NCBI RefSeq assembly: GCF_964204645.1 | Contig: NC_134036.1 | Coordinates: forward strand, 8,222,812-8,286,811 | Length of the DNA: 64,000 nt | Direction: 5' to 3' | Origin: Tubulanus polymorphus | Taxonomy: Eukaryota; Animalia; Nemertea | Shown here: positions 20,316 to 48,559 of the stretch, piece after piece | Layout: every line of letters starts with the position of its first letter | Numbering within the stretch: position 1 is the stretch's first letter | The notes under the pieces: model-generated | Told to the model about the DNA's origin: nothing | Databases searched by the model: none | What the model saw: only the letters and a program-made list of their open reading frames with translations | Made by a program: the position numbers and the translations under genes

Positions 20316-20535
20316 CTCATAGCAAAGAATAGCTCTTATGACAGTCATGAACTGCAGCATTCCCGATGGACGCACATCCACTGTGTTGTCATGTGCCGTG
20401 TGAGTGCTTCGTTGAATAATGCGTAGTTTGCAATAGATGTATACAGATAGCCTTAAATAACTTGCGTAGACATTAAAGTTTAATGATTTTATCGTTCTGC
20501 TTTTCGGTCAAGTAAATATTGAATTGAACCAGGAC

Positions 20536-29325: not shown

Positions 29326-29838
29326 GAAGGATCTTCACTCGAACGATATACGATATTTTCCGACAATACAAAAGAAAAAAACAGTCCAAAAGTCTTCCCA
29401 CGAGCTAATATTTGATTCAGCATTGATTTGATATATATTTATATCGTATAAATTCGATGTATTAATTCGATTCCGAACTGGGCTCAAGTCCGATATACGT
29501 CGAAATAGAGCGTTATGCTTAAAGTCAACTGAGTAAATCGGCTGTTTATCTGTAATTGTGGTCGGCAGGTAGACACTATATGCAATACGTCGTGAACTGT
29601 CGATGTGAGCATTCCTTTACTTTTGCACTGTATAGTGTATCCAGGAAGAAAGACACTAAATATTTGGATGGATATATGAAAGCTGTGGGTACTGGAGTGT
29701 GTAATGGGTAGTGTAGTGTGACCTGTGTGCATTTGTGGCCAACACCAAACATTGTTCATTGGGGTTTGGTCCAGGACTCACGAGATTTTCAACAACACGG
29801 AAGTAACGTGTAATAAATGATGACTTGAATTGCGTGAC

Positions 29839-30258
29839 TACCTACCACCCCTCACTATTGTTGGAAAACTAAATGTTCCGCACTGACTAAAAATTAGTAA
29901 TAACATTTTAGAAATGGCCAGAATTTTAACTTAGGTTCTATCTCATTTTTATTTTACAATTGCGATTGGTATAATTTTTTTTTTAAACGGCCGTTAAGGC
30001 TTCATGTTTCGTCTGCAATTCACTGCAAATAGTTACGCAACTACGCACATTTCAGTGTTTTTGGCAGCTGTACACTCAATGGACACCGTTCGTGACTAGC
30101 TTCACTGCGGAATTATCATTAATTAACATGGCCATATCACATCATCAACTTATATTGTGCATTAAAACACTAACAGCCGAAATAATTGAAATGCACACAC
30201 GATTTCTATCATTGAAAATTGAGAGAGTGACCATGTTTGTGTTCTGCTGCTTCGCGTA
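29839..30258 (+). repeat. Left part of the host repeat interrupted by the Polinton (continues at 47441-47490)
   Basis: High identity to 20536-20954. Confidence 0.88.
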
Positions 30259-30348
30259 AGTAATTAGAAAAGTGGGGTTTCATACCAGAGGGCGAGAGGG
30301 CGAGACACCACTCATCACCACAAGTAATTTTTTTTCCTAATAAATGGG
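30259..30348 (+). repeat. Left TIR (contains promoter motif and ATG of ORF 30344)
   Basis: AGTAATTAGAAAAGTGGGG...GTAATTTTTTTTCCTAATAAATGGG; reverse complement of 47351-47440. Confidence 0.95.
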
Positions 30349-30670
30349 AGATAGAAAAGCATTCTTAGCAACAATAAATAACAGAATAAAACCAGCAAAA
30401 AAACAATTTGAAATAAAAAAGTTAGTTGATGTTACAAAAGAAATTGAACATAAGATATTGAAATTAGAAAAGATAAAAACTAAATATGGAGAGAAAGTAT
30501 CAGCTAATTTAAGCTACTGTAATGTTAGTACATCACGAGAATTTAAAGTGTTTTTACCCGATAAATGGGTTTCATTGAGTATGGAGGAATTGAAAGATTT
30601 AATAGGATTTAAAATAATATATCATGGGAAAAATGAAGACGGTCATCATGATTTAGAAATTGTTGATTAA
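30344..30670 (+). CDS. Polinton hypothetical protein (108 aa; possibly OB-fold ssDNA-binding)
   Basis: ATAAATG start; a diverged homolog at 21421-21762 supports coding status. The fold is a guess from the beta-rich TKYG pattern. Confidence 0.75.
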   Translation: MGDRKAFLATINNRIKPAKKQFEIKKLVDVTKEIEHKILKLEKIKTKYGEKVSANLSYCNVSTSREFKVFLPDKWVSLSMEELKDLIGFKIIYHGKNEDGHHDLEIVD

Positions 30671-31675
30671 ATAAAAAATAAAAATAATGAATATCTAGAA
30701 TCCAAAATGACCTTAGTCGTTTTATAAACAACTACAATCATACAGTACATCTGTTACATGTTATTATAAGAGAGTGCTTCATTTGAATATTGATCAATCA
30801 AACAGGTGTTGCACAACGTTGTTGTTATATAATAAGCACGTAGTACATACAACACACACAAACCAGTTAGCTGGTATTGAATTACTGCGTTTTCATTGGT
30901 TTCTGAAAACGAGGTTTATTTAAATTAGCTCGGCCGTGACGATAGGAGGATAGTCATCATTCTCTCGTGATTAAAAGGAATATTTCAATGTTTTTACGGT
31001 AAGTTTTAGCAAAACCACCCGACTTGACTCACAGAGTTTTTAGGGGATAAGCATCCCGTTATTGAGAGGCGCCACGAGATACCTATCCCCAAGCATTTCT
31101 ACTTACACCCCTGTGACCCACACCTCACCAATTCTCCTTCAATGGTTGACAGGAAACACATTATATTAAAGGCGCCTAATGCATTTCCTATCAACCCCTT
31201 ACCCCCGAAAGGAGGATCGAAAGTCGAAACTGAAGGAGAACCACGGAGGGTGGACAAAGGTGCATTTTCGAAATGCCCCTGCAAGCCAAGCCCGGCGGCA
31301 CTCCAGTGGTTGAATGAATTGCCTTATATACTTAGCTAAAACACCTAAGTAAATGTTGTTGGTGCTAAAAAAATATGTGAAATTTGAAATTATAAATTAT
31401 TCCGAATGAAAAGAATGTAAGAATGAAAACTGAAAAATGAATTATGTATTTTCAACTTAATTATGATATAATTTTTAATCAAATTAGTAATCAATTACTA
31501 TGTTAATTGATTAACAAATTCAAATTCAAATATTCAAATAAAAACAAAATAAATTAATAAATATAATGAATATCTAGAATCCGAAATGACTTATCTGGAC
31601 AATTTAATTGCTCCGCATAGATAGACAAAAGTAGTGAGATATTCAATTATTTTTTTTTGCTTTTTTTCTAAAATA

Positions 31676-32044
31676 TTAATCCATTTTTTTTATTATCAAT
31701 TTTGGAATTTCAGAAGTATTTTCATTTTTGATAGCAGTTGTTTCAGAATTACTAATATCATGAATTTTATTTGATTTCTTATACCAATTACACCCAATCA
31801 AAATGAATACAATTACAAATCCAACTGTAAAATATAAATATTTATCAAATATTCTATTATCAGAAGGAGTAGAAATAACAATATTTTCACCATTTTTATT
31901 AACATTTCTATTACTTATTTTTTCTTTTACAGCTTTTTTATATTCTTGTGATTTAATTCCTAATTGCCGAGACCATTCAATTTGTTTCTGAGTTCTCGGT
32001 TTTTTCTTCACAGTTAATTCCTTCACTTTTTTCACTTCGCTCAT
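31676..32044 (-). CDS. Polinton hypothetical protein with basic N-terminus and one TM helix
   Basis: ATAAATG start; hydrophobic YLYFTVGFVIVFILIGC. Confidence 0.7.
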   Translation of the reverse strand: MSEVKKVKELTVKKKPRTQKQIEWSRQLGIKSQEYKKAVKEKISNRNVNKNGENIVISTPSDNRIFDKYLYFTVGFVIVFILIGCNWYKKSNKIHDISNSETTAIKNENTSEIPKLIIKKMD

Positions 32045-32582
32045 TTATTATAGAAATATTTTTACTTTCAATATTTGAAAATGTTATAACTCCAGTTGAT
32101 AATAATGTCATAAATCCACCTAATTGAAATGATAAATATCCAATCCATTTATTTAATTCAGTCATAACTAAATAATCATTTTTTAAATCGAAATATAATC
32201 TATTTTCATCTTCAATTGGTAGTATATAATTACATAATTTACTATAACCTTTTACTACATTTTCTGATATCGCGTCATTAATTCTAGCTGTTCTCGCGGC
32301 TTCATAAATCTTAAATAATCTAATAATTTCATCTGATTTCATTGTGTCTAATTCATTATAAGTTAAATTTTTACTGACAAAATTTTTACATTTTCCAGAT
32401 GCTATTAATATTTCTAATTGATGTTTACAATAAAGATAATATTCATAATTATTATTTGTTGTAACATTATTTAAAGCACCATCATCTGGAATTAATTTTG
32501 TTTCTGTTATTCCTAAATCATCTAAAGTTTTTTCAATTGGAACATCACCATTTTTAGATTTTATTTTCTTTTCACCTACCAT
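31977..32582 (-). CDS. Polinton hypothetical protein (201 aa)
   Basis: TAATTTTTTT-N6-TAAATG start motif; long ORF in AT-rich DNA. Confidence 0.75.
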   Translation of the reverse strand: MVGEKKIKSKNGDVPIEKTLDDLGITETKLIPDDGALNNVTTNNNYEYYLYCKHQLEILIASGKCKNFVSKNLTYNELDTMKSDEIIRLFKIYEAARTARINDAISENVVKGYSKLCNYILPIEDENRLYFDLKNDYLVMTELNKWIGYLSFQLGGFMTLLSTGVITFSNIESKNISIINERSEKSEGINCEEKTENSETN

Positions 32583-32615
32583 TTATATAACAAAAAAATT
32601 AATTGTGTGATGTTG

Positions 32616-32770
32616 CAACTAGAATTTAACTAGAATGTAACTAGAATTCAACTAGATTAACAAGCTAGTTGAAATATTGTTAAATCTAGTTGATTTTTGT
32701 TTCAACTACTAACAACTAGAATTCAACTAGAATGTAACTAGAATTCAATTAGATTAACAAGCTAGTTGAA
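32616..32770. repeat. Intergenic array of direct and inverted CAACTAG(AAT) units
   Basis: Repeated (C/T)AACTAGAAT ~11-mers plus inverted CTAGTTG, arranged as two blocks. Confidence 0.85.
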
Positions 32771-32771
32771 T

Positions 32772-33380
32772 TTAAATAAATTCATATTTAAATGGGTGTT
32801 GTAATCTAAATAGTAATTTTGATCTTTTAATATTTTTCAACTTATCCATATATTCATTATGTAAATCATGTGGAATAATATCATTTTCCTCAAGTGCATT
32901 TTTCATTGATTTTCTATCTGCATTGTTGAATAAAACTAGAAATCTAATGTTTTCTCTAAAGTCTTTAACAATTGAATTATATTTTTGATTTAAAACCCAA
33001 GTTGTTATCCCAAAATGTCTCCCAGAGAAAGCTAAATAACATAACTCACTTTCTCTAACTTTTGAATCATGTAAATTTGCACAATCATCTATGATAAATA
33101 ATGTATTTGATCCTTTATAAATATCAATTGCTATTTTTATACAATTATCTAAATTTTCTTTTACTGTTTTAGGATCTAATATAATAAATTTATTATTTCT
33201 AGTAATATTTCTATCATAAGTTTGATTAAATTCATATGTTGGACAAAATAATACTATATTATCAAAATAGTTTTTGTAAACAGTTTCTAATAAATTTAAT
33301 ATAAAATAAGTTTTTCCACAATTTGTTACACCAGAAATTAACATATTATGAGGCTCAAATATGAATAATTCCTTATTCAT
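32772..33380 (-). CDS. A32/FtsK-HerA-like genome packaging ATPase
   Basis: Walker A GVTNCGKT, Walker B LFIIDD, SGRH motif, LNQ. Confidence 0.9.
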   Translation of the reverse strand: MNKELFIFEPHNMLISGVTNCGKTYFILNLLETVYKNYFDNIVLFCPTYEFNQTYDRNITRNNKFIILDPKTVKENLDNCIKIAIDIYKGSNTLFIIDDCANLHDSKVRESELCYLAFSGRHFGITTWVLNQKYNSIVKDFRENIRFLVLFNNADRKSMKNALEENDIIPHDLHNEYMDKLKNIKRSKLLFRLQHPFKYEFI

Positions 33381-34508
33381 TTATATATTTTTAATTTTAC
33401 TTGATAATATCCATTCATTGAATTTATCTGGCCATCCAACCCATTTTACTAAAGAATATTTTTTTCTTTTAATAGTTTTTGTTTTTAATACTTTTTCAAT
33501 TTTATATTCTTGTTCTAGATTTTCAGTAGTTAAACTTAATTCTTCTTCATAAAAGTAACCATCAACTTCTTCACCATCTAAATCTTCTAATTAATAGACA
33601 TATGGTTTTGTTGTTATTACCTTTTTTATTTTATATATTTCTCTAGTAAAATTTCGATCGTATCCTTTGTCAAATATCTTTTTATACTTAGAAATTCTAA
33701 CATTTTGACCAACTTTAAATTTAGGTTCACCAAAATCATCTATAAGAAATGCTCCATATAAATTATTCCAAACAATTTCAGCATTTTCAGATTTTCTAGC
33801 ATCAATAGGTTTCATTCCAATAGAAGAATGATAAGAATTATTATATCCTTCTATCAATTTTGGTAAAACATCAATCCATTTAAAAGTATTATTTGCTGTA
33901 AAATATTTCCACATTCTTGTTCTTAATGTTCTATTAAATCGTTCAACAACTGCTGCTTTTTTATCTGATTTTGTTGAAAAATATTTAATATTATGATTAT
34001 CTAAGAGTTCATGAACAAGTGAATTATCAAATTCTTTTCCATCATCAAATTGTATTTTTTCTGGTTTTAGTTTATCATCCGAAAGAAATTTTCTTAAAAC
34101 ATGTGATGTTTGTGCAGCATCTTTTCTATAAAGTGGGAAGCTCCATACATAACGACTAAAAATATCAATTATATTCAATAACCACCAATAATCATCATTA
34201 TCTTTCTTAACATTTTTCATATCAATTAAATCTCCTTGCCACTGTTGATCTACATAACTTACCATAGTTTTACGAGTTTTATATTTTCTAACAATTTTTT
34301 TATGTGTTGTATATGTTGGTTGTTCTAACATAAATTCATTTATATCTTTATATTTAACTAAATTTTGTGGGATTATCTTATCTAATTTATCTTGTTTTAC
34401 TTTACGCCATATATTTTTAGTAGAAGAATAAGCAACCGAACTCTCAGGGTTGTAATATAAATTTCTTAAATATTGTTCTTTAGTATTAGGAGTTTTTTTA
34501 CCACTCAT
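33381..34508 (-). pseudogene. rve (retroviral-like) integrase with C-terminal chromodomain, interrupted by in-frame TAA at 33591-33593
   Basis: WQGDLID, IDIFSRY, QFDDGKEF, VVERFNRTLR. After the stop the frame continues LEDLDGEEVDGYFYEEEL...YKIEKVL...LVKWVGWPDKFNEWI to TAA at 33381. Confidence 0.9.
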
Positions 34509-34538
34509 TTATATATCCTTAATTTTAACTTTATATTT

Positions 34539-35786
34539 CTAATATTGAATACTATCTAATTGTGAATTTACAATATTTAATTGCGCGTCAGATATAATAT
34601 AAATGTGCATTTTAAAATTTTTGATTCCTTTTTTCTTTGTTATGAATAATTGTATTCCATCTTTTGTATTTTGTAGTTTTTTCCCAGAACCATGTAATGA
34701 ATTATCTTCAGTTGTTCTAAAATCTAACCATAATGCATATTTATTACCGGTATAATAATCAATTTGATTAATGTTACAATTTTCAAATGATTTTACTTTT
34801 TCATTCATAAAATGTTTTTTAATTTCTACCCATTGATCTATCATTCTCATTCCTTGACAAAATATTTTATTTGCTATTCCTTCGATAGTTATTTCTACTT
34901 TTGTTATTTCAGGATTATAATAATTGTCAACATTTATTGCACCATTAGTATATGTTCCAATGGTAAAAAATATTAATATACCTTTAATAGATCTTCTTGG
35001 GAAGTTAATATTCTCATTAATTATTTCATCATTTGCATTAATAGTTACAGTTTTAAATTTATCAATATAATCATATAATAATGAAAACCCTTGATTGTAT
35101 TGAGTTTGAATTATACTTGAAATATTTTCATCAGTTACTGTATCATATTCTAAACATATATTCGATAATTTATAACTCATATCTTTATTAACGCTAGATA
35201 ATACAATTTCATTTACAGGAGCAAATGTTATCTCAAATATAATATCTTCTTGAATTGCGTATTTATATAAAGGTGCATTATTATTTATCAATTCAAAGTC
35301 TAATGGAATTTTATATTTGCTTCCATATATACTTTTTATCAATCTATCTACATCATTTGTTAATATTGCGCTATTAGCTTCTGATCTTAATTTATTTTGG
35401 TTTTCTGATTGAATTCCTTGAAATATCATATTATTTCTATTTTCTTTAGTTAACCATAAATCTTTATAATGCATAAATAAATTATAATCATCTAATGAGA
35501 AAACTGTTTCTGGACCAATCTTTATTGTTAACTTTTTAATCAAATATCTCCCAACATTATCAACAACATAATTATTATTATTACCGATTACTTTTATATC
35601 AGCTGATAAATAAATACTATTTGGAACATAAAAAGTATTTTGTGTTAATCTAGGAATTCTAACGTATAAAGTTTCATCGGGATTAATATTTGAAGGGTTG
35701 TGAGTAATTATATGATGTGATCTTTCTGCTTTAATAGCATTAGATATTCTAGAAATCTTAGAAGGACTTATATAACTCCCACTCAT
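34539..35786 (-). CDS. Putative double jelly-roll major capsid protein
   Basis: 415 aa, beta-strand-rich pattern typical of Polinton/PLV MCP (YKIPLDF, LSNICLEYD, YALWLDFR); context within the element. Confidence 0.7.
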   Translation of the reverse strand: MSGSYISPSKISRISNAIKAERSHHIITHNPSNINPDETLYVRIPRLTQNTFYVPNSIYLSADIKVIGNNNNYVVDNVGRYLIKKLTIKIGPETVFSLDDYNLFMHYKDLWLTKENRNNMIFQGIQSENQNKLRSEANSAILTNDVDRLIKSIYGSKYKIPLDFELINNNAPLYKYAIQEDIIFEITFAPVNEIVLSSVNKDMSYKLSNICLEYDTVTDENISSIIQTQYNQGFSLLYDYIDKFKTVTINANDEIINENINFPRRSIKGILIFFTIGTYTNGAINVDNYYNPEITKVEITIEGIANKIFCQGMRMIDQWVEIKKHFMNEKVKSFENCNINQIDYYTGNKYALWLDFRTTEDNSLHGSGKKLQNTKDGIQLFITKKKGIKNFKMHIYIISDAQLNIVNSQLDSIQY

Positions 35787-35823
35787 TTATTTAACAAAAA
35801 AATTAATTATTTATTTTTTGATA

Positions 35824-37260
35824 TCATGGTTCACTTGATATTTTTGATATCATATTTACTAAACCAAAAATAATAGCACTTACAACTGTAATTAAAAATA
35901 AAATAATATGTTCAGCAGCAAAGTTAATAATGTTTCCTGCAGATTTCAATATAAAACCAACAATTGAAGCAATAACTCCTGGTAAAGCTGCAGCAGATTT
36001 CTTTGATAGTTCCCATAAATATTTTGCTAATTTCTTTAAACCATCCTTTACTTTATCTTGTATAGAATTATTACCTGGAGGTTTATCTGGTTTATTGGGA
36101 GTAGGAGTAGATTTTAATGAATTTGAAATAGCTAAACCAATTGTTGTAAATAACATAGTTACAGCTGTTACAATTGAAAGAATTGTTATACCTTCTAATT
36201 TAAATAATAATCTTATTCTGTCTTTTAATGATATTTCAGAATCTGGTTTTATCAACAAATCTTTAAAAATAACTTTTAATCTATTAATATTATAATCATA
36301 TGATTTTAACAATAATTTAATTTCTTCTTTCTGTACTTCTAAATTATCTTTTAAATTACTAATTTCTTTTTCTAAACGTAATTCTTTTTGCCTATATTCT
36401 ATTTCATCAATTACTTGATGATCTAAATCAGACTTTAATTGTTCTATTTCTTTATTTTTATCAGTTAATTCTTTTTCCAAATACGTAATTTTTTGATCTC
36501 TTATACTTTTATTATATGCAATTTTATCAGATGCTAGTTTTATACTAATAATTTCTCTAATTGCTTTATCAGAAAATATATCTAAATCTTCTAATTCTTG
36601 ATATGTTGCATCAAGTAATCCATTTGGTAAAAGTTTTTCAGTTTGAACTTCTCTTGAATTAGGTTTACTAGTTTTGGAATTAATAACTTCTTTAGGAATT
36701 TTTTTTTGTCTTAAATTTGCATTAATTATATCAAAAAATTTAGCATTTCTTTGTTTAAATTCTTTTAAATTATAATCTCTTTCTTCTTGTGTAACATCGG
36801 TTATAACATCATCAATGATTTTCTTAATTCTATCTGGTTTAAATAAATTAAAAGTTGATTTTGTTATTATTTTATCACCACTTTTAAGATTTAAAATCTT
36901 AAAATAATAGTCGCCTTTCAATTTCCAATAATAATCACCATTTAAATATTTTAAATCTTTTACTAAATAATTCATACCTTTATTTGTTATATTGAAACCA
37001 GATCTTTTTAATATTGGTTTAAATTCATGAATAATTTCATTATAATTGTATTCTTTTTCTGTTATTTCTGGTACTTCATTTTCAATACTTATCTTTGAAC
37101 GTGCTTTGTCAATATATTGAGGTGTAGTTAAATTAGAATTATATGCTGTTTCATTACCATCATTAAAACTTGTTTCATCAAAATCAGGTGGTTGTTCATC
37201 AGTTATACCAGGTTCATCAAAAGGATCCATTCCAATATCTTCTACACCTTCTACATCCAT
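35824..37260 (-). CDS. Coiled-coil protein with C-terminal hydrophobic/amphipathic helices (putative membrane protein)
   Basis: Acidic N-terminus, heptad region, TM-like ITILSIVTAVTMLFTTIGLAI, Pro linker, amphipathic and hydrophobic C-terminus. Confidence 0.8.
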   Translation of the reverse strand: MDVEGVEDIGMDPFDEPGITDEQPPDFDETSFNDGNETAYNSNLTTPQYIDKARSKISIENEVPEITEKEYNYNEIIHEFKPILKRSGFNITNKGMNYLVKDLKYLNGDYYWKLKGDYYFKILNLKSGDKIITKSTFNLFKPDRIKKIIDDVITDVTQEERDYNLKEFKQRNAKFFDIINANLRQKKIPKEVINSKTSKPNSREVQTEKLLPNGLLDATYQELEDLDIFSDKAIREIISIKLASDKIAYNKSIRDQKITYLEKELTDKNKEIEQLKSDLDHQVIDEIEYRQKELRLEKEISNLKDNLEVQKEEIKLLLKSYDYNINRLKVIFKDLLIKPDSEISLKDRIRLLFKLEGITILSIVTAVTMLFTTIGLAISNSLKSTPTPNKPDKPPGNNSIQDKVKDGLKKLAKYLWELSKKSAAALPGVIASIVGFILKSAGNIINFAAEHIILFLITVVSAIIFGLVNMISKISSEP

Positions 37261-37276
37261 TTATATAATAAAAAAA

Positions 37277-38665
37277 TTAAAATTTAAAATATAATATTCC
37301 TCCGATTACAATTCCTATACAAGTTATAGCTAATTTAGTATTTTCATGGGATTTATTATCATTATCAGTTTTAATTATATCATGTTGAATTTTATCAGTT
37401 CTATTATTTTCTGATGTATTGTAATCTTTTATTTTAGAATCATTATTTAATTTAATATTCTTAGTTTTAGTTTCAGTTGATTGAATGTGTTTTTTATTTT
37501 TATCACCTTCCATTAATTTTGGAGCAGTAATAATCTTTTTATTTATATCATTTAATCCAAATGAATTATTTATTGTTGCAGTTTTAATTAGATTATTATA
37601 ACCAATTATGTTTCCCATCTTTAATACTAAATCATTAGAAATAATTAATAGATTAGGGCCTATACAATAATTAAGTCTTACATGAGATTTATCTAAATAA
37701 TTTTGATATCTTATAATGTTTTCTGGAATCGATCTATTTTTATCATCATGTATGGAATCTTCAAATAATACTTTGAATTGTTTCTGTGTATCAAATGATG
37801 TATTCAAATTTCCAATTATCGGTGATCTTGTTTCAACTTGTGATCCTAGAATACATATCAAATAAATTCTAATAGATTGATTTATTCTTTCTATACCTGA
37901 TTTAGTAAAACCTTCACTATTTTCTAAAATAAAATAAACCCAACCATTATTGTTTTCTTGTTTTAAATTATCATAAAATTTTGGTAATTTATTGAAATTT
38001 AATGTTTCTAAATCCTTTGTTTCTATTTTACCATAACCTAATTTATTATTATAGATATTATAAAAACTATTAGATGGTATGGGAAGTGCACAATATTCTG
38101 CAATCTTTCTAGGGCATGGAAGTTATCTTATTGTTCCAATTTTTGTTCTAAAATCAGAATTATTTATATCTATATTAAATTCATTGCAAATTTTATAAAA
38201 CTTTGATAAATTAATATTATTATCTAATTCTTTAAAATATCTAGATCCTGGTAAAGCGCACTCTAATTCATTTAATATTATTCTGATTTGAAAGTATGTA
38301 TGAAATCTAAATAAACTTTGAATTAGTTTATATTTAGAATTATTCAAATGATCATTCCAACTAATTCCACAACCTGTTGTTGCACAATAAACAGCAAAAT
38401 TTAATTGATTCTGCCAATACTTCATATTAGATTTTAATAACCATTGTTTTTCATCTTTCAATTTTTTAAAATTAATTAAATATACATGAAATATATTTTC
38501 CATCTTTGCATTAAAATTATTAGTTTCAGTAACATAAATATATAAATTAGTTAATGAATCTAAAACTTCATTTCTATATGTAATATCTTTATTAAAATCT
38601 ATTGCTGGAATATTATATTTAATTGATTTATTATATTGGAAAGCTTTTGGAAAACTATCTACCAT
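37277..38665 (-). pseudogene. Single ~462-codon Polinton gene with C-terminal TM anchor, split by in-frame TAA at 38123-38125
   Basis: The frame stays open from 38122 into ORF 37277-37861 (87 codons, LPCPRKIAEYC...GWVYFIL). Only the 38665 start has the ATAAATG motif. Confidence 0.8.
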
Positions 38666-38681
38666 TTATATAATTAAAAAA

Positions 38682-39116
38682 TTAATAATTTATTAATTCT
38701 TTTAATAATTTATCTTGTTCTTCAACTGTTATATGACCATTTAAACTTATTATATAATCTAGTGTGTTCTTTAATTTATTAATTTCTTTTATATTAGTTT
38801 TAATTTTTTCTTTATTACTTTTTATATTTAATTTTGAACTTATACCAGTTAAAACACTTGAACTTAATCCTAATACACCAATTGATATAGCTAAAGGTGT
38901 TAATGGACTGAATATTGCTAAAAATGTTATTACAGAACTAATTGTAACCGAACCACTTATAATCAAATAATATATAATTTTACTTTTTAAATATTTTTTC
39001 TTTTTTATCTTTAAGTCACTTTCAAATTCTAATATTTGTTTTTCTAAATATGTTTTTAATTTAGTTTTATTTATATCATGAGGAATAATATCAATACTAT
39101 CAACTTTATCTTCCAT
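38682..39116 (-). CDS. Two-TM hypothetical protein (144 aa)
   Basis: Start motif; two hydrophobic segments flanked by charged helices. Confidence 0.75.
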   Translation of the reverse strand: MEDKVDSIDIIPHDINKTKLKTYLEKQILEFESDLKIKKKKYLKSKIIYYLIISGSVTISSVITFLAIFSPLTPLAISIGVLGLSSSVLTGISSKLNIKSNKEKIKTNIKEINKLKNTLDYIISLNGHITVEEQDKLLKELINY

Positions 39117-39135
39117 TTATTTAGAAAAAAAATTA

Positions 39136-39558
39136 CTAATTAGTAAACTTATAAGCAACAAATATAACAATAACTGTTCCACCTAAAATCCAAATTATTT
39201 CATATTTCTGTTGTTCTTTACTTGGGGTATAATAATCTGATAATTTAGGTTTGTATAGATGTAATTTTTCTTTATTGGTTACCGCGTTATATAAACTCAT
39301 TGCATCATCAACTGATTGAAAATCTCTATGTGAAATCTTCTGATCATATAATTCTTTATTGATGTAATCCATATAGTTTTGTCTCTTTTCTCTATATTCT
39401 TCTGCAGCTTTATTGTATTTCTCTAACGCTAAGTTATGTCTTCTTTGTTCTCCTAATGAACTATTTTTATCAATATGTTTAAATAAATAACCACCACCAG
39501 TAAATGCTAAAGCGTTAACAATTGCCGATCCTATAATAGTTATAATTGCAGAAGCCAT
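39136..39558 (-). CDS. Hypothetical protein with hydrophobic N-terminus and C-terminal TM (140 aa)
   Basis: Start motif; MASAIITIIGSAIVNALAFTGGG and IIWILGGTVIVIFVAY. Confidence 0.78.
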   Translation of the reverse strand: MASAIITIIGSAIVNALAFTGGGYLFKHIDKNSSLGEQRRHNLALEKYNKAAEEYREKRQNYMDYINKELYDQKISHRDFQSVDDAMSLYNAVTNKEKLHLYKPKLSDYYTPSKEQQKYEIIWILGGTVIVIFVAYKFTN

Positions 39559-39582
39559 TTATTTAGCAAAAAAATTACGCAT

Positions 39583-39804
39583 TTATATGGGAGGAATATA
39601 TTTTTGTTTTTCCAAATAATCAATTGTTAAATTAGATAAAGTAACTGCTAACGTTAACTTTAAAATATCATTTATATCAAATCTATCAACATTAACACTT
39701 CCCATTTTGAATACTTTTTTTAATACCATTGAATAACCAACAGTTCCAACTGATAGTAATGCACCATTATATAATCCAGTTATTATCCACTTATTATCAC
39801 TCAT
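39583..39804 (-). CDS. Small hydrophobic hypothetical protein (73 aa)
   Basis: Start motif GTAATTTTTTTGATAAATAAATG; tightly packed between neighbours. Confidence 0.7.
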   Translation of the reverse strand: MSDNKWIITGLYNGALLSVGTVGYSMVLKKVFKMGSVNVDRFDINDILKLTLAVTLSNLTIDYLEKQKYIPPI

Positions 39805-40146
39805 TTATTTATCAAAAAAATTACTATCATCAAAATATTTAGTTAACTTATTTATGATTAATTCAACATTTATTTCATTACTAGTTTTATGATTATCATA
39901 TATTTTGGATAATATGTTTTTAATATCTTCAATAATTCCATCTTCATTTAATTCATAATATTCTAATGGTGATTTAATTAAATCAATTACTTTTTCTATA
40001 TTATACTTTTCTTTATCAATCATTGATGCATTGTTAAATGATTTACTTTTTATATCAGTAATGACATCATTTAGTTTAATTCTCATTTCTTTACTATGTT
40101 TAAAATCAAACCCAAAACATATACTCTGTCCAACAGTTATATTCAT
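39805..40146 (-). CDS. Hypothetical protein (113 aa)
   Basis: Start motif; its TAA abuts the next ATG. Confidence 0.7.
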   Translation of the reverse strand: MNITVGQSICFGFDFKHSKEMRIKLNDVITDIKSKSFNNASMIDKEKYNIEKVIDLIKSPLEYYELNEDGIIEDIKNILSKIYDNHKTSNEINVELIINKLTKYFDDSNFFDK

Positions 40147-40163
40147 TTATATAGTGAAAAAAA

Positions 40164-40916
40164 TTACTCTCTACATCTTATAACTAATTCATAAATTACA
40201 GGGAAATTATTTAAATCAATTAAGTATCCATTATGATTTCTAATTTCTAATCTAAAATTATTAAAACGAGAAATGCATGGTTTGAAATCACATTCTGTTA
40301 AATTATAATTTATTTGCGTTCCAAATTCTTTAACATTCTTCAATGGTAAAATGTTTAGTAAACCAGAATTACAAGTTATATCTTTAGTTGCTTCGAATGT
40401 TTTTGTAGGATCAATTAAATTGCAATAAATATAAAAATGTGTGTAAGGTATCAAGTTTGGTGTAGCATCAACATTTGAATAAAGTTTATCTGGTGTAATT
40501 CCTAACAGTTTAGCTATAGGTTTTTTAACTAAAAATTGATATTTTTCACTACGAGTTAACCTAATCCTTATTTTATCAGAACTATCACTTTTTAAAAATC
40601 TAATACTAAACCCGGAATTACTACCTAATTTGTGCCAGGCTTTTCTATTAATTTCTTGTGACAATGTATCTAAATTATATAACCCTGGTTTTAGATATAA
40701 ATGATACCTTTTATTTTTTTCCTGAACTATAAACAATTGATGATCAATAGTTTTACCCGTTATATTATAAAAAGAATTACATAAACTTATATTAACTAAT
40801 TTTAAATCTACACAATTCTTAAATTCTCTATCTAATTGTACTAGTAAATTATGAGATTTATAATTTGTAAGTCTTCTAGAATCAACAAATATTCTGTATT
40901 CTTTTAGTTCTACCAT
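40164..40916 (-). CDS. Putative minor capsid (penton, single jelly-roll) protein
   Basis: 250 aa with IFVDSR, LKPGLYN, FYIYCNLI, LLNILPL and LEIRNHNGYLIDLNN patterns typical of Polinton/virophage pentons. Confidence 0.72.
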   Translation of the reverse strand: MVELKEYRIFVDSRRLTNYKSHNLLVQLDREFKNCVDLKLVNISLCNSFYNITGKTIDHQLFIVQEKNKRYHLYLKPGLYNLDTLSQEINRKAWHKLGSNSGFSIRFLKSDSSDKIRIRLTRSEKYQFLVKKPIAKLLGITPDKLYSNVDATPNLIPYTHFYIYCNLIDPTKTFEATKDITCNSGLLNILPLKNVKEFGTQINYNLTECDFKPCISRFNNFRLEIRNHNGYLIDLNNFPVIYELVIRCRE

Positions 40917-40984
40917 TATTTATAACATAAAAAAATTACCGCTCATCACTAAAAATTAATTTTAATAAAATTTTTCCTTAATAA

Positions 40985-42286
40985 ATGGATGAGAAGATAG
41001 CATGCGAAATTTGTGGTGAACTTCTAAGAAAAAGTAATATGGCTCGACATATGAAAAAACATAATGAAAATTATAAACCCCCTAAAATAAACTGTCCAAA
41101 TTGTAATAAAACATTCTCTAGAAATTATTTCAAAAAACATTTAGAGAAGTGTAGAATTAATGGTGCAACAGCTAATGTTGATAATAATTCTGTTGAAGTT
41201 GAACCTGAAATCATTTGGAAAAGACCTTTCTTATTCTATGATAAGGATAATATAAAAGATCATTTCTGTGAGCCTTGTCGAATAAAATATAACCCTGAAA
41301 ATATAGAAGATTGGGAGAATCATCAATTTCGTAAAGCACATATAGATAAAATTTCTAATAAATTTGAAACTGAATTCAATGAAAGAAAAAATAATTTATT
41401 AGAAAAAATAAAATATGAGAAAACGTTACCAGATAATGAAGAAACAGTTGAAAAGTTAGAAAAACAATATAATGAATTAACAAGAAAAACATATTATTGT
41501 AAATATTGTAAATTGATTATTACAACAAGTAATTCAAATCTACATAATAGAACAATAAAACATAAAGAAAACGTAAGAAAATACCAAGAGCTTAATGAAG
41601 ATCTATTACCAAGAAATTATAAACAAAAATGCCCACAATGTAGTTATGCGACCTTAAGGCAAGAAGGTACTGTGTTATTTTGTGTTGATTGTGGATGGCA
41701 AAAGAATTTATGGGATGAAGAAAAAACTAGAAATTTTCTTATAGATCCAAAATTAAATTATCTTGATGAAATTTTTAAAATATTTTCTATAGAAGATCAT
41801 ACACCAGAATATATGCAATGGCTTGAAAAAATGAAAATAATAGAAAATAAAAATGGTGAAATAACTAAAAAAGATATTATAAAAACCATTATTCCACCAA
41901 CATTTAACACAAAACAAAAGAAAATGTATTTATATTTATTATTTAACGATTATTATGAAAAACCTAAATTAACAGAAGAAGATATGAAAAATATAAAAAA
42001 AATATTCAAACAAATATTAATGTATCATTTGGAAAATAGAATAACAGATTCAATAAATTATGAATTCTTTTTAAATAAGATTGTAAATTATTTAAACCTA
42101 GATATTATAATTCCATTTGATGAATTAACAAACAAAAAGAAACAAAGAGAGCGAGATGAAATGTGGAACAAGATAGAACTTTATTTAAATGAGAAAAATG
42201 GAATGGAAGAAGAACCTGAACAATTAAATGAAAATGAAGAAGCTAATAGTGATTTCGAGTATGATGATATTGATTTTATGTTTTAA
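40985..42286 (+). CDS. Multi-zinc-finger protein fused to a poxvirus A2/VLTF3-like late transcription factor domain
   Basis: N-terminal C2H2-type fingers, zinc ribbon CPQC-x13-CVDC, then KLTEEDMKNIKKIFKQ...SINYEFFLNKI...DEMWNKI resembling VLTF3 (by recall). Confidence 0.72.
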   Translation: MDEKIACEICGELLRKSNMARHMKKHNENYKPPKINCPNCNKTFSRNYFKKHLEKCRINGATANVDNNSVEVEPEIIWKRPFLFYDKDNIKDHFCEPCRIKYNPENIEDWENHQFRKAHIDKISNKFETEFNERKNNLLEKIKYEKTLPDNEETVEKLEKQYNELTRKTYYCKYCKLIITTSNSNLHNRTIKHKENVRKYQELNEDLLPRNYKQKCPQCSYATLRQEGTVLFCVDCGWQKNLWDEEKTRNFLIDPKLNYLDEIFKIFSIEDHTPEYMQWLEKMKIIENKNGEITKKDIIKTIIPPTFNTKQKKMYLYLLFNDYYEKPKLTEEDMKNIKKIFKQILMYHLENRITDSINYEFFLNKIVNYLNLDIIIPFDELTNKKKQRERDEMWNKIELYLNEKNGMEEEPEQLNENEEANSDFEYDDIDFMF

Positions 42287-45200
42287 TGGCCATAAGGTAA
42301 TGTTTTTATACCATCATCTGAAATATGCCTTTTATCATCAAATGGATTTAAAGTAGTTTTTTCAACTTCATTAATGTACATCTCATGATCTTCTGATCTT
42401 AAACAATTCATCTTGTGTTTCATTACAATTGAGTTATATAAACACTTTATATAATCTTGAAATTCTATATGTTTATCAACCACATGTTTTGTTATTCCTT
42501 TTAACTTTTTAGCTTCATGATCTTTTGTTCTGTAACTATACATTTTACTTCTTATCCCAACAAATTCAATCATTTCATCACCTCCTAATTCATCTTTAAA
42601 TTTACCAGGAATCTTTTTATTATCATTACTAAACAATTCATGATCTTTGGGGTAATTGCTAAAGTCGAAATAATGTTTCAATGTTTTTAAGTCTTTTGTT
42701 ATATCATTTGTCTTGATTTTTAGTATGTAACTGTCAGTATTTTTTTGGATTAATGGGAACCCAGAATTGAATGTTCCATCATCTGTTGATAAATCATAAA
42801 CATAGTCAGTTGGGTTATATATTTCAAATAAATCTTTAACTTCTTCTGTTAATTCTTTTTCTACATGCCTTAAATTAAAACAATTTGGTTTAGATTTAAT
42901 TAATTCTATATTCATATTAAATCCTAATGAACAGAATAATATATTTAATCCTGATATAGCCACTTTTCCTTTCTGTGCAAAGGTTATCTTTTTATCCTTT
43001 GTAAATTTTTTAGTACCATCGGCTGCGTAGAACCCAATGAAGAACCATTTTCTTAAATTATTTTTTGCATTTAATACATAATCTGGAACTATCTTTTCTT
43101 TTGTTGAAGTATTACTTTTCACTATTGCATGAATATAGAATTCATCATTATATTCTATAGCAAAATCTTTAGGATTATTTACAAGTATTCTATAAACTGC
43201 TGATGATTTCATAACATCCATGATTCTAAATGTTTTATGTGAATAAACTTCTTCACAGAATTTCTTAATTCTTTCTAATAATTTTAAGTCTTGATTGCAT
43301 AAATACCAACAATATTTATTACCCCAAACATATTTATACACACCTGCTGAACCATCACCCATGAAAAATCCTTTGATAAAATATTCTTTTTCTTCTAATG
43401 TTTCAGGTTCTATATTATAAATATTACCAATTATTTCATCAAATGACATATGATTCATTCTTGGGAAAAATCTTTTATGTAATAATTCATCTCCAATTTT
43501 TATATCAGTTGGTTTTATTTCATCACCATTTCGTTTAATTAAACTGTGGTCTTCAGTAACATCTACAAACCCTAATTTAGTTCTAACTCTATAGATTTTC
43601 TTATTTGTTTTATGTCTAATAATATTCTTTAATTTTTTCCATCCATTTCTTGTCCAAACATCCATTAAACCATTTATTTGTATTAGTTCTTTTTCACCAT
43701 ATGAAATATAAGATTTATTTTGATTAGGAATAATTTCTGAAATTCTTCTAATTAATATTTGGTTATTGTATTTTAATAATATTGGGGTGTCAGCTGTTAC
43801 AGAATCGAAGTATAGAATTTCTATATGTTTTTCCCCAAACAATGGTTGTAATACATTGTAATAAAAATCATACATTAATAATTTTGATATTTCTAAAACT
43901 GTTGAACCAATGAAAATGGGTTTATTAAATTTCATTGACGTTCTTTTTAATTTTACTGCTGTTAAATAATCTTCAAATCTTTTATTTCCTAAATGTCTAG
44001 GACTTGATTGTAAATGTCTTAATCTTTCAGAATTATTTACTAATTCAATATCATTTCTATTTCTAATATTTTCACAAGTTTTTCCATAAAAACTATTGTT
44101 CATCAATTTAAAAAAATCTTTTTCGAAATCAGTTTTTGATATGGTTCTCTGTTGAGTATTGAAATCTATATATTTTTCTAACCACTTCGATTGATTAAAT
44201 TCAATATATCTATGTACTTTCTTTAATTTCATTCCTTGTTTTAGATAAAATTTTAACATTCTATAATGAACAATATAATTATATTTATTATTTTGAGTAA
44301 GTATTAATTTTTCTGTAAAAACATGATCTTTTGGTTTTATTTTCTTCTGGTATTCACTTAAATAACTATCATCTACAGTTAAATGTTCTGGGCAATAAGG
44401 TAAGTTTCTTGTTTTAAACTTTATATTTTCAGGATATTCTAAATCAACTACAAAGAAATAACCAATTGGTGCTTCATCTTTTAAACTCGCAATTGCGCTT
44501 TCCCAATCAGTTTTATCATCACTTTCAACTTCTGTTAATATAAAATTTTTATATGGTTGAGGTTGCATCATTGCCCAACCATATAAATTATTGGCGTCAA
44601 TATATAATAATTTATATTCATCATTTGCTTTAAAATACCTATCTCCCATAACACCACTAATTCCACCTCTAATTGATTTTTCAAATAATAAAACCATATC
44701 TGGTTCTTTTAATAAATCTAATTCTACATTTGTATATTTTAAACCACATTGCCAGGTTAAACCAGGACTTGAATAACAATAACAAGGGTCAACATTAAAA
44801 TGGTTTAGATTAACTTCTCTAAACTTTTCAAATATATCTGCCAATATCATAACATCTGATTTTAAATATAAATCAACTAATTCGCCATGATTTTTCATCT
44901 TAAAATGGTTCCAAATATTTAATGTTCTATCAAAAACTTCGTCTTTCACATACTCCTCTTTTAATTTATCATAAAATTGATCTTTTAATAATTCTGTTAC
45001 ATTAAAATCATTGTGTGTTTTATAAAATGAATAAGGAATTGCACCTTTATATCTCAATAATTTAAAATCTTGGTCATTTGGATAATAATATCGAGTTATA
45101 ACAAAATCATTATCAACTAAACTTTTTGATAAATTATCTAATGAACTTGCTAGAAATCTATAAGAATCTAAAAATCTAATGCAACCAAATTGAAATGAAA

Positions 45201-47355
45201 TATAATTTTCAGATGTTTTAGCTAATAGTTTAAAATCATATTTTCTTACATTTACACCATTCATAGCATTATATTCTTCTATTTCTTGATTAATTGCGCC
45301 CAATTTTCCTGATAATTGTTTTATAAATAGATGGGTATCATATCCTGATAAATTATGAAATAATATTGGTACGAAATTTACTTTTTTAGCTTGTAAATTG
45401 CAATCTTCATGAGCAGCTCCACGATATTTTGAATTTAAATGATTATGATCTCTAACTTTTTTATCAAATGAATAAAAACGTTTTTCACAGTAACAACAAT
45501 GAGTTGCATAATTAAAATCAATTTCATCTTCTTTTGTTATAACTATTCTTTTATTTTTGTTTAATAATTTTGCAAAATCACTTTCTAATTCAATCATTTT
45601 ATCACAAAAATCATTAACTACATTTTCACCTCTAAAAGAAATATATTGACTTTCATATAATTCGGGATAATTTGATTTTATATAAATTCCATAAGCAGCA
45701 GCTCTTTGATGAACTTTTTTAATTGTATTTATAATTGGTGGGTCTTGTATTGTGTCTTCATTTAATTCATTTCCTTTATCCATTGATTTTAATAATTGCT
45801 TTTTGTTATATATTTCTTTTCTATCTTGATCAGTTAATTCTTTATTCAACGATTCAAAATCCCCATAAATTACAAATGGAACAATATTCTTAAATTTATG
45901 ATTAGTAAATTTCAATTTATAATCTTTTTCTGTTGGCATTATTAATTTACAAAAATCTTTATTATCACATAATTCTTTATGTTTTAATAATGTATTCTCA
46001 GTCATAAATTTAGATAAACATTTTCTACATAGATAAATTTTACGATGATGATCACTTTCTGTTGTTCTAAAGAATAAATCAATTTGTTTTAACCACATAT
46101 AATGTTCATTTTCATCTTTTTTGTAATATAACAAATCTATAGCATTTTCATCATCATAATATTCTGTTAAATATAAAGCTTCCAATGTATAATCTTTAAT
46201 ATTTTCACCTTTTGTCTTTGGTAATTGCATTAATTCAAATACATTTATTTTTAAATTATTAATTTTTTCTATTTTAGGAATCATTTTTATAGTTACTGGA
46301 TATTGATCAATTTTATATAATGTTTCATATTTCCGGTAATTTGTTATTCTAAAACTATGCGTCATATCTTCTGTTTGGTGTAAACAACTAATAATTGACC
46401 ATAGAAAACATTTATTATCTTCATTTTGAACATTTATTACTGCTTTTGTTGTAAATGGTAATTTAATATAAGATGATGCTTTAATATCCTTTTCTGTTGT
46501 AAAGTTTGAATCATTTTTAAACATTTTATTACTTTTTGATGTTTTATTCCTTTTTGTATTATAAACATTTAAATCTAAATATATAATTTCATTCAATGTT
46601 AAGCCAGAACCCTCAAAATATCTTTCTTCAATATGACGTTTAAATTCATTTAATATTTTTTCTAACTTCTCTTTTATTTGTGTTTTTGAAATTATTTCTT
46701 CAGAGTGTGTTTGAATATTATAATTCATTTTTTCTTCTGACTTTATAAAACTTACTTTCCCAGAGATACTAATTTTTGGATATTCAACATCTGTTATCAA
46801 ATCTAGTAATTTTTCTATTATTTCATTAAATGTACTATAATCTTCTATTGTTGTACCTTTAAAAAATCTAAATATAATAGCTGCAGGACCAATTTTACTA
46901 TGTAATGTTTCTAAGATTTCAATTGTATCTTTTATTTCTAGTGAATCAATATAATTTCTAACATTTTCCATGTAAGGTTTATTTGAAATGGATTTAGTTT
47001 TTGAAGTTGATTCTTTTACTTGTTGAGGTTTATTATCAAAATATTCTAATCCTAAAACATTTTTATTTAAATTTTTATAATGTTTTTGTGATTCGAGATG
47101 TCTATTATAATTCCTTTTTACTATAAATTCATTACAAACTTCACATTTTATTTCATCCACATTCATATTTTCTAATCGTTCTTTTCTTTCATTAGAATTT
47201 TCTGGAGTTTCAAAATCTATTACATTTTTTATATGATTTACAGTTTTTTCATGTCGTGTTTTATGAGATGTATCGATGTATTTTTTACAATATTGACAAT
47301 AATATTGATTTTTATTGACATTATTGTTTTCTAGTTGGTGTTCATTCTCCCCCAT
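42283..47355 (-). CDS. Protein-primed family B DNA polymerase (pPolB) with N-terminal Zn fingers, OTU-like and HNH/EndoVII-like domains and an intein
   Basis: Exo motifs YGDFES, FHNLSGYD, YLKSDV; polymerase motifs YIDANNLYG, KLMNNSFYGK, YFD/TDS. NEDNKCFLWS (OTU-like Cys); CCYC...VRDHNH...GAAHEDCN (EndoVII-like). Confidence 0.95.
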   Translation of the reverse strand: MGENEHQLENNNVNKNQYYCQYCKKYIDTSHKTRHEKTVNHIKNVIDFETPENSNERKERLENMNVDEIKCEVCNEFIVKRNYNRHLESQKHYKNLNKNVLGLEYFDNKPQQVKESTSKTKSISNKPYMENVRNYIDSLEIKDTIEILETLHSKIGPAAIIFRFFKGTTIEDYSTFNEIIEKLLDLITDVEYPKISISGKVSFIKSEEKMNYNIQTHSEEIISKTQIKEKLEKILNEFKRHIEERYFEGSGLTLNEIIYLDLNVYNTKRNKTSKSNKMFKNDSNFTTEKDIKASSYIKLPFTTKAVINVQNEDNKCFLWSIISCLHQTEDMTHSFRITNYRKYETLYKIDQYPVTIKMIPKIEKINNLKINVFELMQLPKTKGENIKDYTLEALYLTEYYDDENAIDLLYYKKDENEHYMWLKQIDLFFRTTESDHHRKIYLCRKCLSKFMTENTLLKHKELCDNKDFCKLIMPTEKDYKLKFTNHKFKNIVPFVIYGDFESLNKELTDQDRKEIYNKKQLLKSMDKGNELNEDTIQDPPIINTIKKVHQRAAAYGIYIKSNYPELYESQYISFRGENVVNDFCDKMIELESDFAKLLNKNKRIVITKEDEIDFNYATHCCYCEKRFYSFDKKVRDHNHLNSKYRGAAHEDCNLQAKKVNFVPILFHNLSGYDTHLFIKQLSGKLGAINQEIEEYNAMNGVNVRKYDFKLLAKTSENYISFQFGCIRFLDSYRFLASSLDNLSKSLVDNDFVITRYYYPNDQDFKLLRYKGAIPYSFYKTHNDFNVTELLKDQFYDKLKEEYVKDEVFDRTLNIWNHFKMKNHGELVDLYLKSDVMILADIFEKFREVNLNHFNVDPCYCYSSPGLTWQCGLKYTNVELDLLKEPDMVLLFEKSIRGGISGVMGDRYFKANDEYKLLYIDANNLYGWAMMQPQPYKNFILTEVESDDKTDWESAIASLKDEAPIGYFFVVDLEYPENIKFKTRNLPYCPEHLTVDDSYLSEYQKKIKPKDHVFTEKLILTQNNKYNYIVHYRMLKFYLKQGMKLKKVHRYIEFNQSKWLEKYIDFNTQQRTISKTDFEKDFFKLMNNSFYGKTCENIRNRNDIELVNNSERLRHLQSSPRHLGNKRFEDYLTAVKLKRTSMKFNKPIFIGSTVLEISKLLMYDFYYNVLQPLFGEKHIEILYFDSVTADTPILLKYNNQILIRRISEIIPNQNKSYISYGEKELIQINGLMDVWTRNGWKKLKNIIRHKTNKKIYRVRTKLGFVDVTEDHSLIKRNGDEIKPTDIKIGDELLHKRFFPRMNHMSFDEIIGNIYNIEPETLEEKEYFIKGFFMGDGSAGVYKYVWGNKYCWYLCNQDLKLLERIKKFCEEVYSHKTFRIMDVMKSSAVYRILVNNPKDFAIEYNDEFYIHAIVKSNTSTKEKIVPDYVLNAKNNLRKWFFIGFYAADGTKKFTKDKKITFAQKGKVAISGLNILFCSLGFNMNIELIKSKPNCFNLRHVEKELTEEVKDLFEIYNPTDYVYDLSTDDGTFNSGFPLIQKNTDSYILKIKTNDITKDLKTLKHYFDFSNYPKDHELFSNDNKKIPGKFKDELGGDEMIEFVGIRSKMYSYRTKDHEAKKLKGITKHVVDKHIEFQDYIKCLYNSIVMKHKMNCLRSEDHEMYINEVEKTTLNPFDDKRHISDDGIKTLPYGH
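42739..43803 (-). other. Intein (355 aa) with LAGLIDADG homing endonuclease in pPolB motif C
   Basis: YFD|SVTADTP...VTEDHSL (block B)...IKGFFMGDG...FIGFYAADG...YVYDLST...LIQKN|TDS; excision restores YFDTDS. Confidence 0.93.
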
Positions 47356-47440
47356 TTATTAGGAAAAAAAATTACTTGTGGTGATGAGTGGTGTCTCGCC
47401 CTCTCGCCCTCTGGTATGAAACCCCACTTTTCTAATTACT
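47351..47440 (-). repeat. Right TIR (contains promoter motif and ATG of pPolB)
   Basis: Perfect inverted copy of 30259-30348. Confidence 0.95.
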
Positions 47441-48559
47441 CGCGTAAATCCCGCGCGGTGGTGCAACCGCGTGGAGTGGGGCCGATACGTATAGGTCTAT
47501 GAAACTGTCGAACAATCGACAGGTACAAAATGTTTTCAAAATCATATTACAATAAAATTATGTTGTTGTAATTCTTGGTATCGTTTCAAATTATTTTTAT
47601 TCATGTCTTTTGCTTGCGCCTGCCACCGATTTTCAGAGGTTTTTAGAAAACAAATCTCAAAGGCCAATATTGTTTGCCGACTTGTAATCGATTTTGAGGA
47701 CTACAACCACATGACGATCTCAAACACAAACAAATTGGTCTCAAAGGAAATTTGAAGAAAATCTTTATTATTAACAAATAAAAACGTCTACCCGGTACGT
47801 CAGGTTTCACTTAATCATTATATCAATAATCGCGTGTGTCTTCAAAGATCATTCGCGGTATGAACTAATTCAGAATATAGTTTCCGGACGTAACCTAGCA
47901 CTGGTTCTGATGATGATACAGAACTGGCCTGAACAGAACTATGTATTCATCCTGCCGTTATTGTAATAGATATATGTTGTGCGCCAACATTCATTTATCG
48001 GGTTTTAATCGGCTCGTTTTACTCTGTTGCCGTCCTTGGGAATTATGTAGGCATGTATATCTCACTTCATTTTTTGTTCATCGCAATATAGGGGCCGGTT
48101 GCACAGTCACGGCTTACACTTAAGATCAGTCTTAGACCATCTTAGTTCACTAGCCAATCAAACAACTCGACACAAGTCTTACGAATCAAGACCACTTTTG
48201 GTGTCAAACCACCACTGTGCAACTGGCCCCGGGCAAATCTATTTTATTAATCCTTGGACGTCGTCATCCCAAAATCTGAGCTAAGGGCGCTTTTTAAGAA
48301 TGTCTAAAAGAATGTCTGGGGCCAAACTGCCCCCTCCAAGCCAGGAAACCTGTACCGGTACACGATCTGTTGATACAAATACGCTTTTCCTTGTTTATGT
48401 AATGCGCTGCCCTTGGACATGATAGCAGTTGATGATATCGTTCACGCATTAAAAAACTTAGTTAACGTGGTTATGATATATATTATATATGAGGCCATGG
48501 AAAGATCGCGCAGTACAAGAGAGTTATTGGTATATCGCTTATTACCCATCCGTTACCGA

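Follow-up and report, generated by a model that had tools for sequence, protein, structure and literature searches.

A poxvirus late promoter-like motif, confined to a single capsid clade, at the gene starts of a Polinton integrated in the nemertean Tubulanus polymorphus

How the genes of animal Polintons are transcribed, and whether this depends on a helper virus, is an open question; virions of these elements have never been observed, as stated in the accessible part of a recent account (10.64898/2026.06.19.733378). The question is raised by a stretch of 64,000 nucleotides of the Tubulanus polymorphus genome (contig NC_134036.1, positions 8,222,812 to 8,286,811), called here the window and numbered from its first letter. 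Positions 30259 to 47440 of the window are an integrated Polinton/Maverick element of 17,182 bp and 24% GC, which sits in a host interspersed repeat. A sequence-only reading had noticed a T-run, a spacer of about 6 bp and TAAATG in front of what it took for structural genes, and had likened this arrangement to poxvirus late promoters.

The motif belongs to gene starts. All 11 contexts quoted in that reading were recovered letter for letter, their coordinates being those of the A of each ATG, and the nine copies between 32582 and 40950 all lie on the minus strand; the other two are in the terminal inverted repeats (TIRs). The pattern TAATTTTTT-N5-12-TAAATG has 10 matches in the window for 0.04 expected (maximum of 1 in 100 shuffles). 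All 10 are in the element, where 0.09 are expected from shuffles of this AT-rich sequence alone, and none is in the host flanks. Comparison with internal ATGs, a check named beforehand, gave a clear separation: the full motif is present at 10 of the 16 open reading frame (ORF) starts of the element, at 0 of its 656 other ATGs and at 0 of 1654 host ATGs. TAA immediately 5′ of the ATG, taken alone, was found at 14 of 16 ORF starts versus 41 of 656 other element ATGs. Two ORFs do not have TAAATG. One is the minor capsid gene (ATG at 40916), which has TAAATAATG, so that a TAAATG in every copy holds for the 10 exact copies and fails for this one; the other is orf113a, which has no motif because it is the tail of a gene split by an in-frame stop (see below).

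With the first T of TAAAT numbered 0, the 10 exact copies, which form class I, all have T at −13 to −8, plus A at −15 and A at −1. On the plus strand, class I precedes orf108 (30344-30670; motif at 30325-30346, in the left TIR). On the minus strand, it precedes orf201 (31977-32582; motif at 32580-32601), the major capsid gene (35784-35805), orf478 (35824-37260; 37258-37279), orf180 (38123-38665; 38663-38684), orf144 (39114-39135), orf140 (39136-39558; 39556-39577), orf73 (39583-39804; 39802-39823, where the TAA doubles as the stop of orf113b), orf113b (39805-40146; 40144-40166, with one more base in the spacer) and pPolB (47353-47374, in the right TIR). The TAAATAATG variant of the minor capsid gene occupies 40914-40938, also on the minus strand. 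The motif being present 5′ of pPolB and of genes of unknown function, its description as a mark of structural genes was too narrow. The layout of T-run and spacer is as described, but the T-run is 6 to 8 long and the spacer varies with its length. The T-run begins 13 nt 5′ of TAAAT in 10 of the 11 copies and 14 nt in one, and for this last copy 201 of 580 reads carry a spacer one base shorter. At four other starts, class II, TAAATG is kept and AAAA at −15 to −12 replaces the T-run: orf122 (31676-32044; motif at 32042-32063, minus), the ATPase (33378-33399, minus), the integrase (34506-34527, minus) and a zinc-finger gene (40985-42286; 40966-40987, plus).

This geometry bears on a first alternative, that the motif is a 3′-end signal of the upstream gene overlapping the next start, either a TTTTTNT terminator, as the sequence-only reading had itself considered, or a U-rich element with AATAAA. 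In 3 cases the leading TAA doubles as the stop codon of the preceding gene, AATAAA overlaps 26 of 63 starts in the clade described below, and TTTTTNT is mildly rare in the coding sense (10 versus 17.6 ± 2.9). However, the T-run keeps its spacing to TAAAT while the upstream stops are 0 to 189 nt away. Three class I copies in all have no upstream gene, the two TIR copies, as had been pointed out, and the divergent penton start. Finally, a T6 run follows 0 of the 7 gene ends without a class I start downstream. For these three reasons the terminator is rejected, and a 3′-end signal of any kind is largely refuted and hardly credible.

A signal acting on the RNA was also considered, i.e. stop-start coupling on a polycistronic RNA, or a trans-splice acceptor with its branch point and pyrimidine tract. 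The TAA touches the ATG in frame, two junctions are real stop-start overlaps, and TAAT with a T-run after it looks like a branch point and its tract. Against this, none of the 11 window copies has an AG between the T-run and the ATG, an AG within 15 nt was found at only 7 of the 63 clade starts, and the motif also marks first genes and divergent genes, which have no preceding gene to be coupled to. We regard this explanation as very improbable.

Relatives were collected from a capsid alignment of 43 proteins, which led to 80 loci in metagenomes, together with 2 contigs binned as prokaryotic, and loci with a capsid identity of at least 50% were called close. Before pruning, the 16 close loci had TAAATG at 55 of their 65 ORFs, versus 11 of 363 for the 66 distant loci. 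Near-copies, judged by eye, were removed (2 close, 11 distant), and four loci, L171, L173, L174 and L180, were set apart from the distant ones, a group defined after the motif had been seen. The close clade, window included, then has TAAATG at 63 of 75 starts, compared to 2 of 282 in the other Polintons, and loci with a TAAATG majority are 14 of 15 and 0 of 51, respectively. ORF calling was biased toward a TAA 5′ of the first ATG, equally for both locus sets. GC content is not the explanation, since AT-rich outsiders (GC 26-36%) have TAAATG at 1 of 28 starts and GC-richer clade loci (36-44%) at 7 of 9. Among homologues outside the clade, TAAATG was seen for the ATPase in 0 of 49, orf201 in 0 of 33, orf478 in 0 of 26, orf180 in 0 of 25, orf140 in 0 of 24, orf73 in 0 of 15 and the integrase in 1 of 14.

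In a quick capsid tree of 59 rows, from which 9 loci with stops, near-copies and partial matches were left out, the 13 rows labelled as close fall on a single branch (SH-aLRT 98). The motif and its fixed geometry are restricted to this one capsid clade, which has also lost the Kozak purine: a purine at −3 is present at 11 of 75 close-clade starts versus 210 of 282 in the other Polintons. Across 50 TAAATG starts of relatives, T has a frequency of 0.88 at −9 and 0.76 at −10. The strict T-run is strongest near the window element, with at least 5 T at −13 to −8 in 23 of 55 close-locus TAAATG starts, and the hexamer ending at the A of the ATG is TATAAA in 27, AATAAA in 26 and another in 10 of the 63 clade starts. 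The four loci set apart have distant capsids (34-36%) and TAAATG at 7 of 7 starts, which, judging from these sequences, is possibly a second origin. L171, with divergent starts down to 14 nt apart, is on a separate long branch of the quick tree. Divergent-gene spacing was tried as a group discriminator and abandoned, as the ranges overlap (14-72 nt versus 3-247 nt). A capsid filed under Bartonella assemblies with short contigs, P0045, falls inside the close-clade branch, and is probably host DNA within these assemblies. A search of IMG/VR gave no relatives of the capsid, of the ATPase or of P0150, the polymerase relative described below. In one close relative, L123, a deoxynucleoside kinase gene (10340-10981, minus) is also preceded by a motif of class I. 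The gene block of L123, taken relative to orf108, has the opposite orientation to that of the window.

What could such a signal be? Vaccinia late promoters contain TAAAT, usually followed by the G of the start codon, preceded at 10 nt by a conserved T with less conserved Ts around it, and intermediate promoters are without the conserved T and AT-rich at 15-19 nt (PMC11980589, accessible part). The late layout is given as a core, a 5-7-bp spacer and TAAAT(G/A), with a related TATTT plus TATATA layout in asfarviruses (PMC5294985, likewise). TAAAT is the template of a 5′ poly(A) leader and is retained in salmon gill poxvirus (PMC4542343), and the vaccinia concatemer resolution site strongly resembles, and acts as, a late promoter (PMC8956199). 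In the element, TAAAT overlaps the start codon; the T-rich core, a T-run with its centre about 10 nt upstream, is set off from TAAAT by a short spacer of 5-7 nt. By sequence, class I fits the vaccinia late description, and class II loosely the intermediate one. The likeness to poxvirus late promoters proposed at the outset is thus upheld with respect to the published consensus (PMC11980589, PMC5294985); the motif is a putative start site, and a poxvirus a candidate helper. Unlike in vaccinia, the motif occurs here in a 17-kb integrating element for which profile searches found no RNA polymerase, its form varies less (TAA in front of the ATG, G or A behind it), it extends to replication genes, and a poxvirus early-like pattern was found at 0 of 15 starts.

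In the explanation towards which we lean, a pox-type large DNA virus infects the same cell, and its RNA polymerase and late factors use the motif as a post-replicative promoter. A poxvirus-late-like motif at nearly all gene starts suggests that the element borrows the transcription of a pox-like helper and not that of the host, and the clade comparison, including the homologues devoid of the motif, gives strong support to a helper-type promoter. The lineage would then be a helper-dependent animal virophage, or provirophage, using pox-type late transcription. The T-run at −13 to −8 would act as the late core, a pox-type polymerase would start within the AAA of TAAAT, and its slippage would produce a 5′ poly(A) leader in place of the T at −3 and of the in-frame TAA. 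As this leader would supply an A at −3, the poor Kozak context would be costless. Class II starts may be an intermediate-like or weaker class. By analogy with mavirus and its helper, Cafeteria roenbergensis virus (CroV), integrated copies would be silent until the cell is infected by the helper, and would spread by virions carrying the integrase (10.1101/068312). The element does copy a large-DNA-virus motif in its promoter positions and has no RNA polymerase of its own by profile searches, as expected of a virophage.

Alternatively, the host RNA polymerase II could transcribe the element from a nuclear promoter, perhaps by way of an element-encoded activator (the zinc-finger protein), and the poxvirus likeness would be convergence. 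Coral polintoviruses are reported to be expressed (PMC11131425, accessible part). The present element is multi-copy in the germline, TAAAT is short and AT-rich, and no homologue of the zinc-finger gene was found in the non-clade loci, which are partial contigs. A TATA box has a spacing of about 25-30 nt, however; a TATA-like hexamer touching the ATG is unusable as the TATA box of that gene, and one at the proper distance was found at only 2 of 15 starts. Moreover, an mRNA begun upstream would have a U at −3, a context that the sister Polintons avoid. We hold transcription by the host polymerase to be quite improbable.

The helper may also be of another kind that initiates at TAAAT: a large DNA virus, whether asfuvirus-like, egovirus-like or other, or else a linear element of the cytoplasm that encodes a polymerase. 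Aquatic hosts in which large DNA viruses occur are for the most part not known to harbour poxviruses, which counts for such a helper. TATATA is present in 6 of 15 upstream regions (up to 60 nt), and asfarvirus late promoters are likewise bipartite (PMC5294985). Yeast cytoplasmic linear elements have a TAAAN initiator leading to 5′ poly(A) leaders, and pGKL1/2 are, like the window element, linear DNA of the pPolB type (PMC6211774, accessible part); they differ by encoding an RNA polymerase and a capping enzyme of their own, and by an upstream conserved sequence akin to poxvirus early promoters. On the other hand, the invariant part of the motif is TAAATG, and not a TATATA at the start site, as the hexamer counts above show. 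The mimivirus early motif AAAATTGA was found at 0, the CroV motif TCTA at 3 and the baculovirus motif DTAAG at 4 of the 15 starts within 60 nt; these and the other three counts over 15 starts (TATATA, the poxvirus early-like pattern and the TATA-like hexamer) are raw counts, without a shuffled baseline. A non-pox helper is, in our estimation, unlikely.

Several points weigh against the pox-type helper. No transcript or start site of the element has been seen. The comparison with poxviruses relies on the wording of the published consensus. The TATATA hexamers and the TAAAN initiator of the yeast elements count here too, as does the expression of coral polintovirus genes in existing expression data, for which the clade is unspecified (PMC11131425). 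The element being multi-copy, with its insertion missing from many copies of the target repeat, repeated access to the germline is required. The titles listed in a literature search included no marine-invertebrate poxvirus. Neither a motif scan of IMG/VR nor the intein and kinase leads turned up a helper virus with the same motif. The scan, over 6 of 64 parts, gave at least 120 loci, 12 of 120 opening a frame of at least 70 codons and none recognisable by eye as being of poxvirus or Polinton type. The kinase of L123 was dropped as a lead: it pointed to one contig of 49% GC, L203, with TAAATG at no listed start.

The intein lies inside pPolB (42739-43803, minus; 355 aa), at polymerase motif C, and has a LAGLIDADG domain. 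It groups with other pPolB inteins, with no poxvirus link: five further inteins of Polinton-type polymerases share its starred group. It is allelic with inteins of RNA-primed PolB; its read depth resembles that of the rest of the gene. It was discarded as a helper trace, the nearest 5 rows being all in other Polinton-type polymerases. In three sampled carriers outside this group, the best structures were RB69/T4-like (P0160) and Pol delta (P0153, P0163). Homing-endonuclease and intein insertions in pPolB were already known (PMC11161782, accessible part).

A precedent for the proposed life style is mavirus, whose promoters resemble the late motif of CroV and are silent without it (10.1101/068312, accessible part). 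Both elements are integrated, with TIRs, a target-site duplication (TSD), pPolB and an rve integrase. Mavirus differs by its protist host and its mimivirus-type helper with a TCTA motif (PMC5294985); its helper dependence is proven, while that of the window element would follow from the motif, and the window capsid groups with animal Polinton relatives. Polinton-like viruses (PLVs) have been found in entomopoxvirus occlusion bodies (Barth et al. 2024, PMC11296320). These are also small Polinton-type viruses, proposed to be poxvirus parasites, but they have insect hosts, divergent capsids and a cysteine protease, and those bearing PolB are without rve integrase (PMC11296320); the words promoter, motif and TAAAT are absent from the accessible main text of that article. 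With animal Maverick-Polintons the element shares TIRs, the 6-bp TSD, pPolB, rve, the A32 ATPase and both capsid proteins; the sampled sister elements have Kozak-type starts and almost no TAAATG, and no protease was detected by Pfam in the window element.

Our literature searches, from which supplements and subscription papers were excluded, found no comparable study of promoters in animal Polintons, and the word promoter is absent from the accessible text of 10.64898/2026.10.13.758929, PMC11161782, PMC11131425 and 10.1101/2024.03.23.586382. Mimicry of helper promoters and poxvirus-associated PLVs are each known already; what these searches did not find is a clade of animal Polintons that bear rve and have promoters of the pox type throughout. 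The start-codon signature separates Kozak-type from pox-type Polinton lineages, which permits a direct screen across animal genomes, and it points to pox-like viruses in hosts without described ones. For RNA data, the prediction is 5′ poly(A) leaders starting within TAAAT, and silence without a helper. Only tentatively, and aware that it may well prove wrong, we propose that poxvirus late signals have come to drive all promoters of a whole animal Polinton clade, and that its members persist in the germline as provirophages of an undiscovered group of marine-invertebrate poxviruses. TAAATG would then map such viruses, and may mark an inherited anti-poxvirus defence.

The element has the hallmarks of a Polinton: TIRs, a 6-bp TSD, pPolB, an rve integrase, double jelly-roll major capsid, penton and A32 ATPase. 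The TIRs are 93 nt long, the left one (30259-30351, plus) containing the orf108 start and the right one (47348-47440, minus) the pPolB start, each with its class I motif. The TSD copies are at 30253-30258 and 47441-47446 (both plus), and the hexamer is single-copy in an empty copy of the repeat at 20920-20998. The packaging ATPase (32772-33380, minus) matches Pfam Pox_A32 (E 6e-14). The integrase (33591-34508, minus), identified by Pfam, ends at an in-frame stop (33591-33593) that cuts off a chromodomain-like tail; its L123 homologue is rve plus Chromo. The predicted structure of the major capsid protein (34539-35786, minus; pLDDT 85) is a double jelly-roll, with iridovirus and PBCV-1 capsids as Foldseek matches (E 5e-17), and that of the minor capsid protein (40164-40916, minus; pLDDT 81) matches the mavirus penton (E 1.5e-10). 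Orf180 and the tail with orf113a are one gene in two pieces (37277-38665, minus), interrupted by an in-frame stop at 38123-38125; the L123 counterpart is one uninterrupted ORF of 442 aa. The pPolB gene (42283-47355, minus; 1690 aa) has 58% identity over 1110 aa to P0150, which itself matches DNA_pol_B_2. Orf144 (38682-39116, minus) has a weak Pfam match to SLATT_fungal (E 0.004; L123 homologue E 0.001), and SLATT proteins are known from related viruses (10.64898/2026.10.13.758929, accessible part).

Pfam searches of the 16 element ORFs gave no match to a protease, such as the Ulp1/adenain-type maturation protease present in most of group 1; gene content is more variable in group 2 Polintons (10.64898/2026.06.19.733378). 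The same profile searches gave no RNA polymerase or capping enzyme, nor did PHROGs in 11 ORFs. Near the left end, a GC-richer stretch of about 0.9 kb without a long ORF (30677-31590), with a 35-nt direct repeat at its edges (30677-30711 and 31556-31590), is possibly an insertion. Between the ATPase and orf201 (32616-32770) are two 58-nt copies made from 11-nt units.

DNA reads of run X7 give the element a depth of about 100 to 960 (both mates summed), while the last flank bin has about 20; more than 1000 reads bridge the flanks without the element. The depth excess and these empty-site joints indicate that the element belongs to a multi-copy family and that its insertion site is a host repeat. 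Between 39060 and 40200, 117 sites are variable; among 40 listed, none is in the four TAAATG cores, 1 is in a T-run and 1 in a spacer. In run X9, whose RNA nature is a guess, 1 contig has two short element matches, and none covers 39060-40200. One contig of run X1 omits 452 nt (39102-39555) between two motif copies, perhaps through a deletion from one motif to the next, perhaps through faulty mapping.

The insertion target is a high-copy host repeat (29630-30258 and 47441-47538), of which a second copy is at 20519-20998. To the right of the element, 52695-56774 (plus) contains ORFs of 203, 162, 400 and 240 aa, with no Pfam match in the three scanned. To the left, a BEL/Pao retrotransposon with 3 ORFs occupies 3858-9403 (plus); among its named matches a protein of the nemertean Tubulanus ranks first, at 77%, and the remaining matches are at 48-54%.

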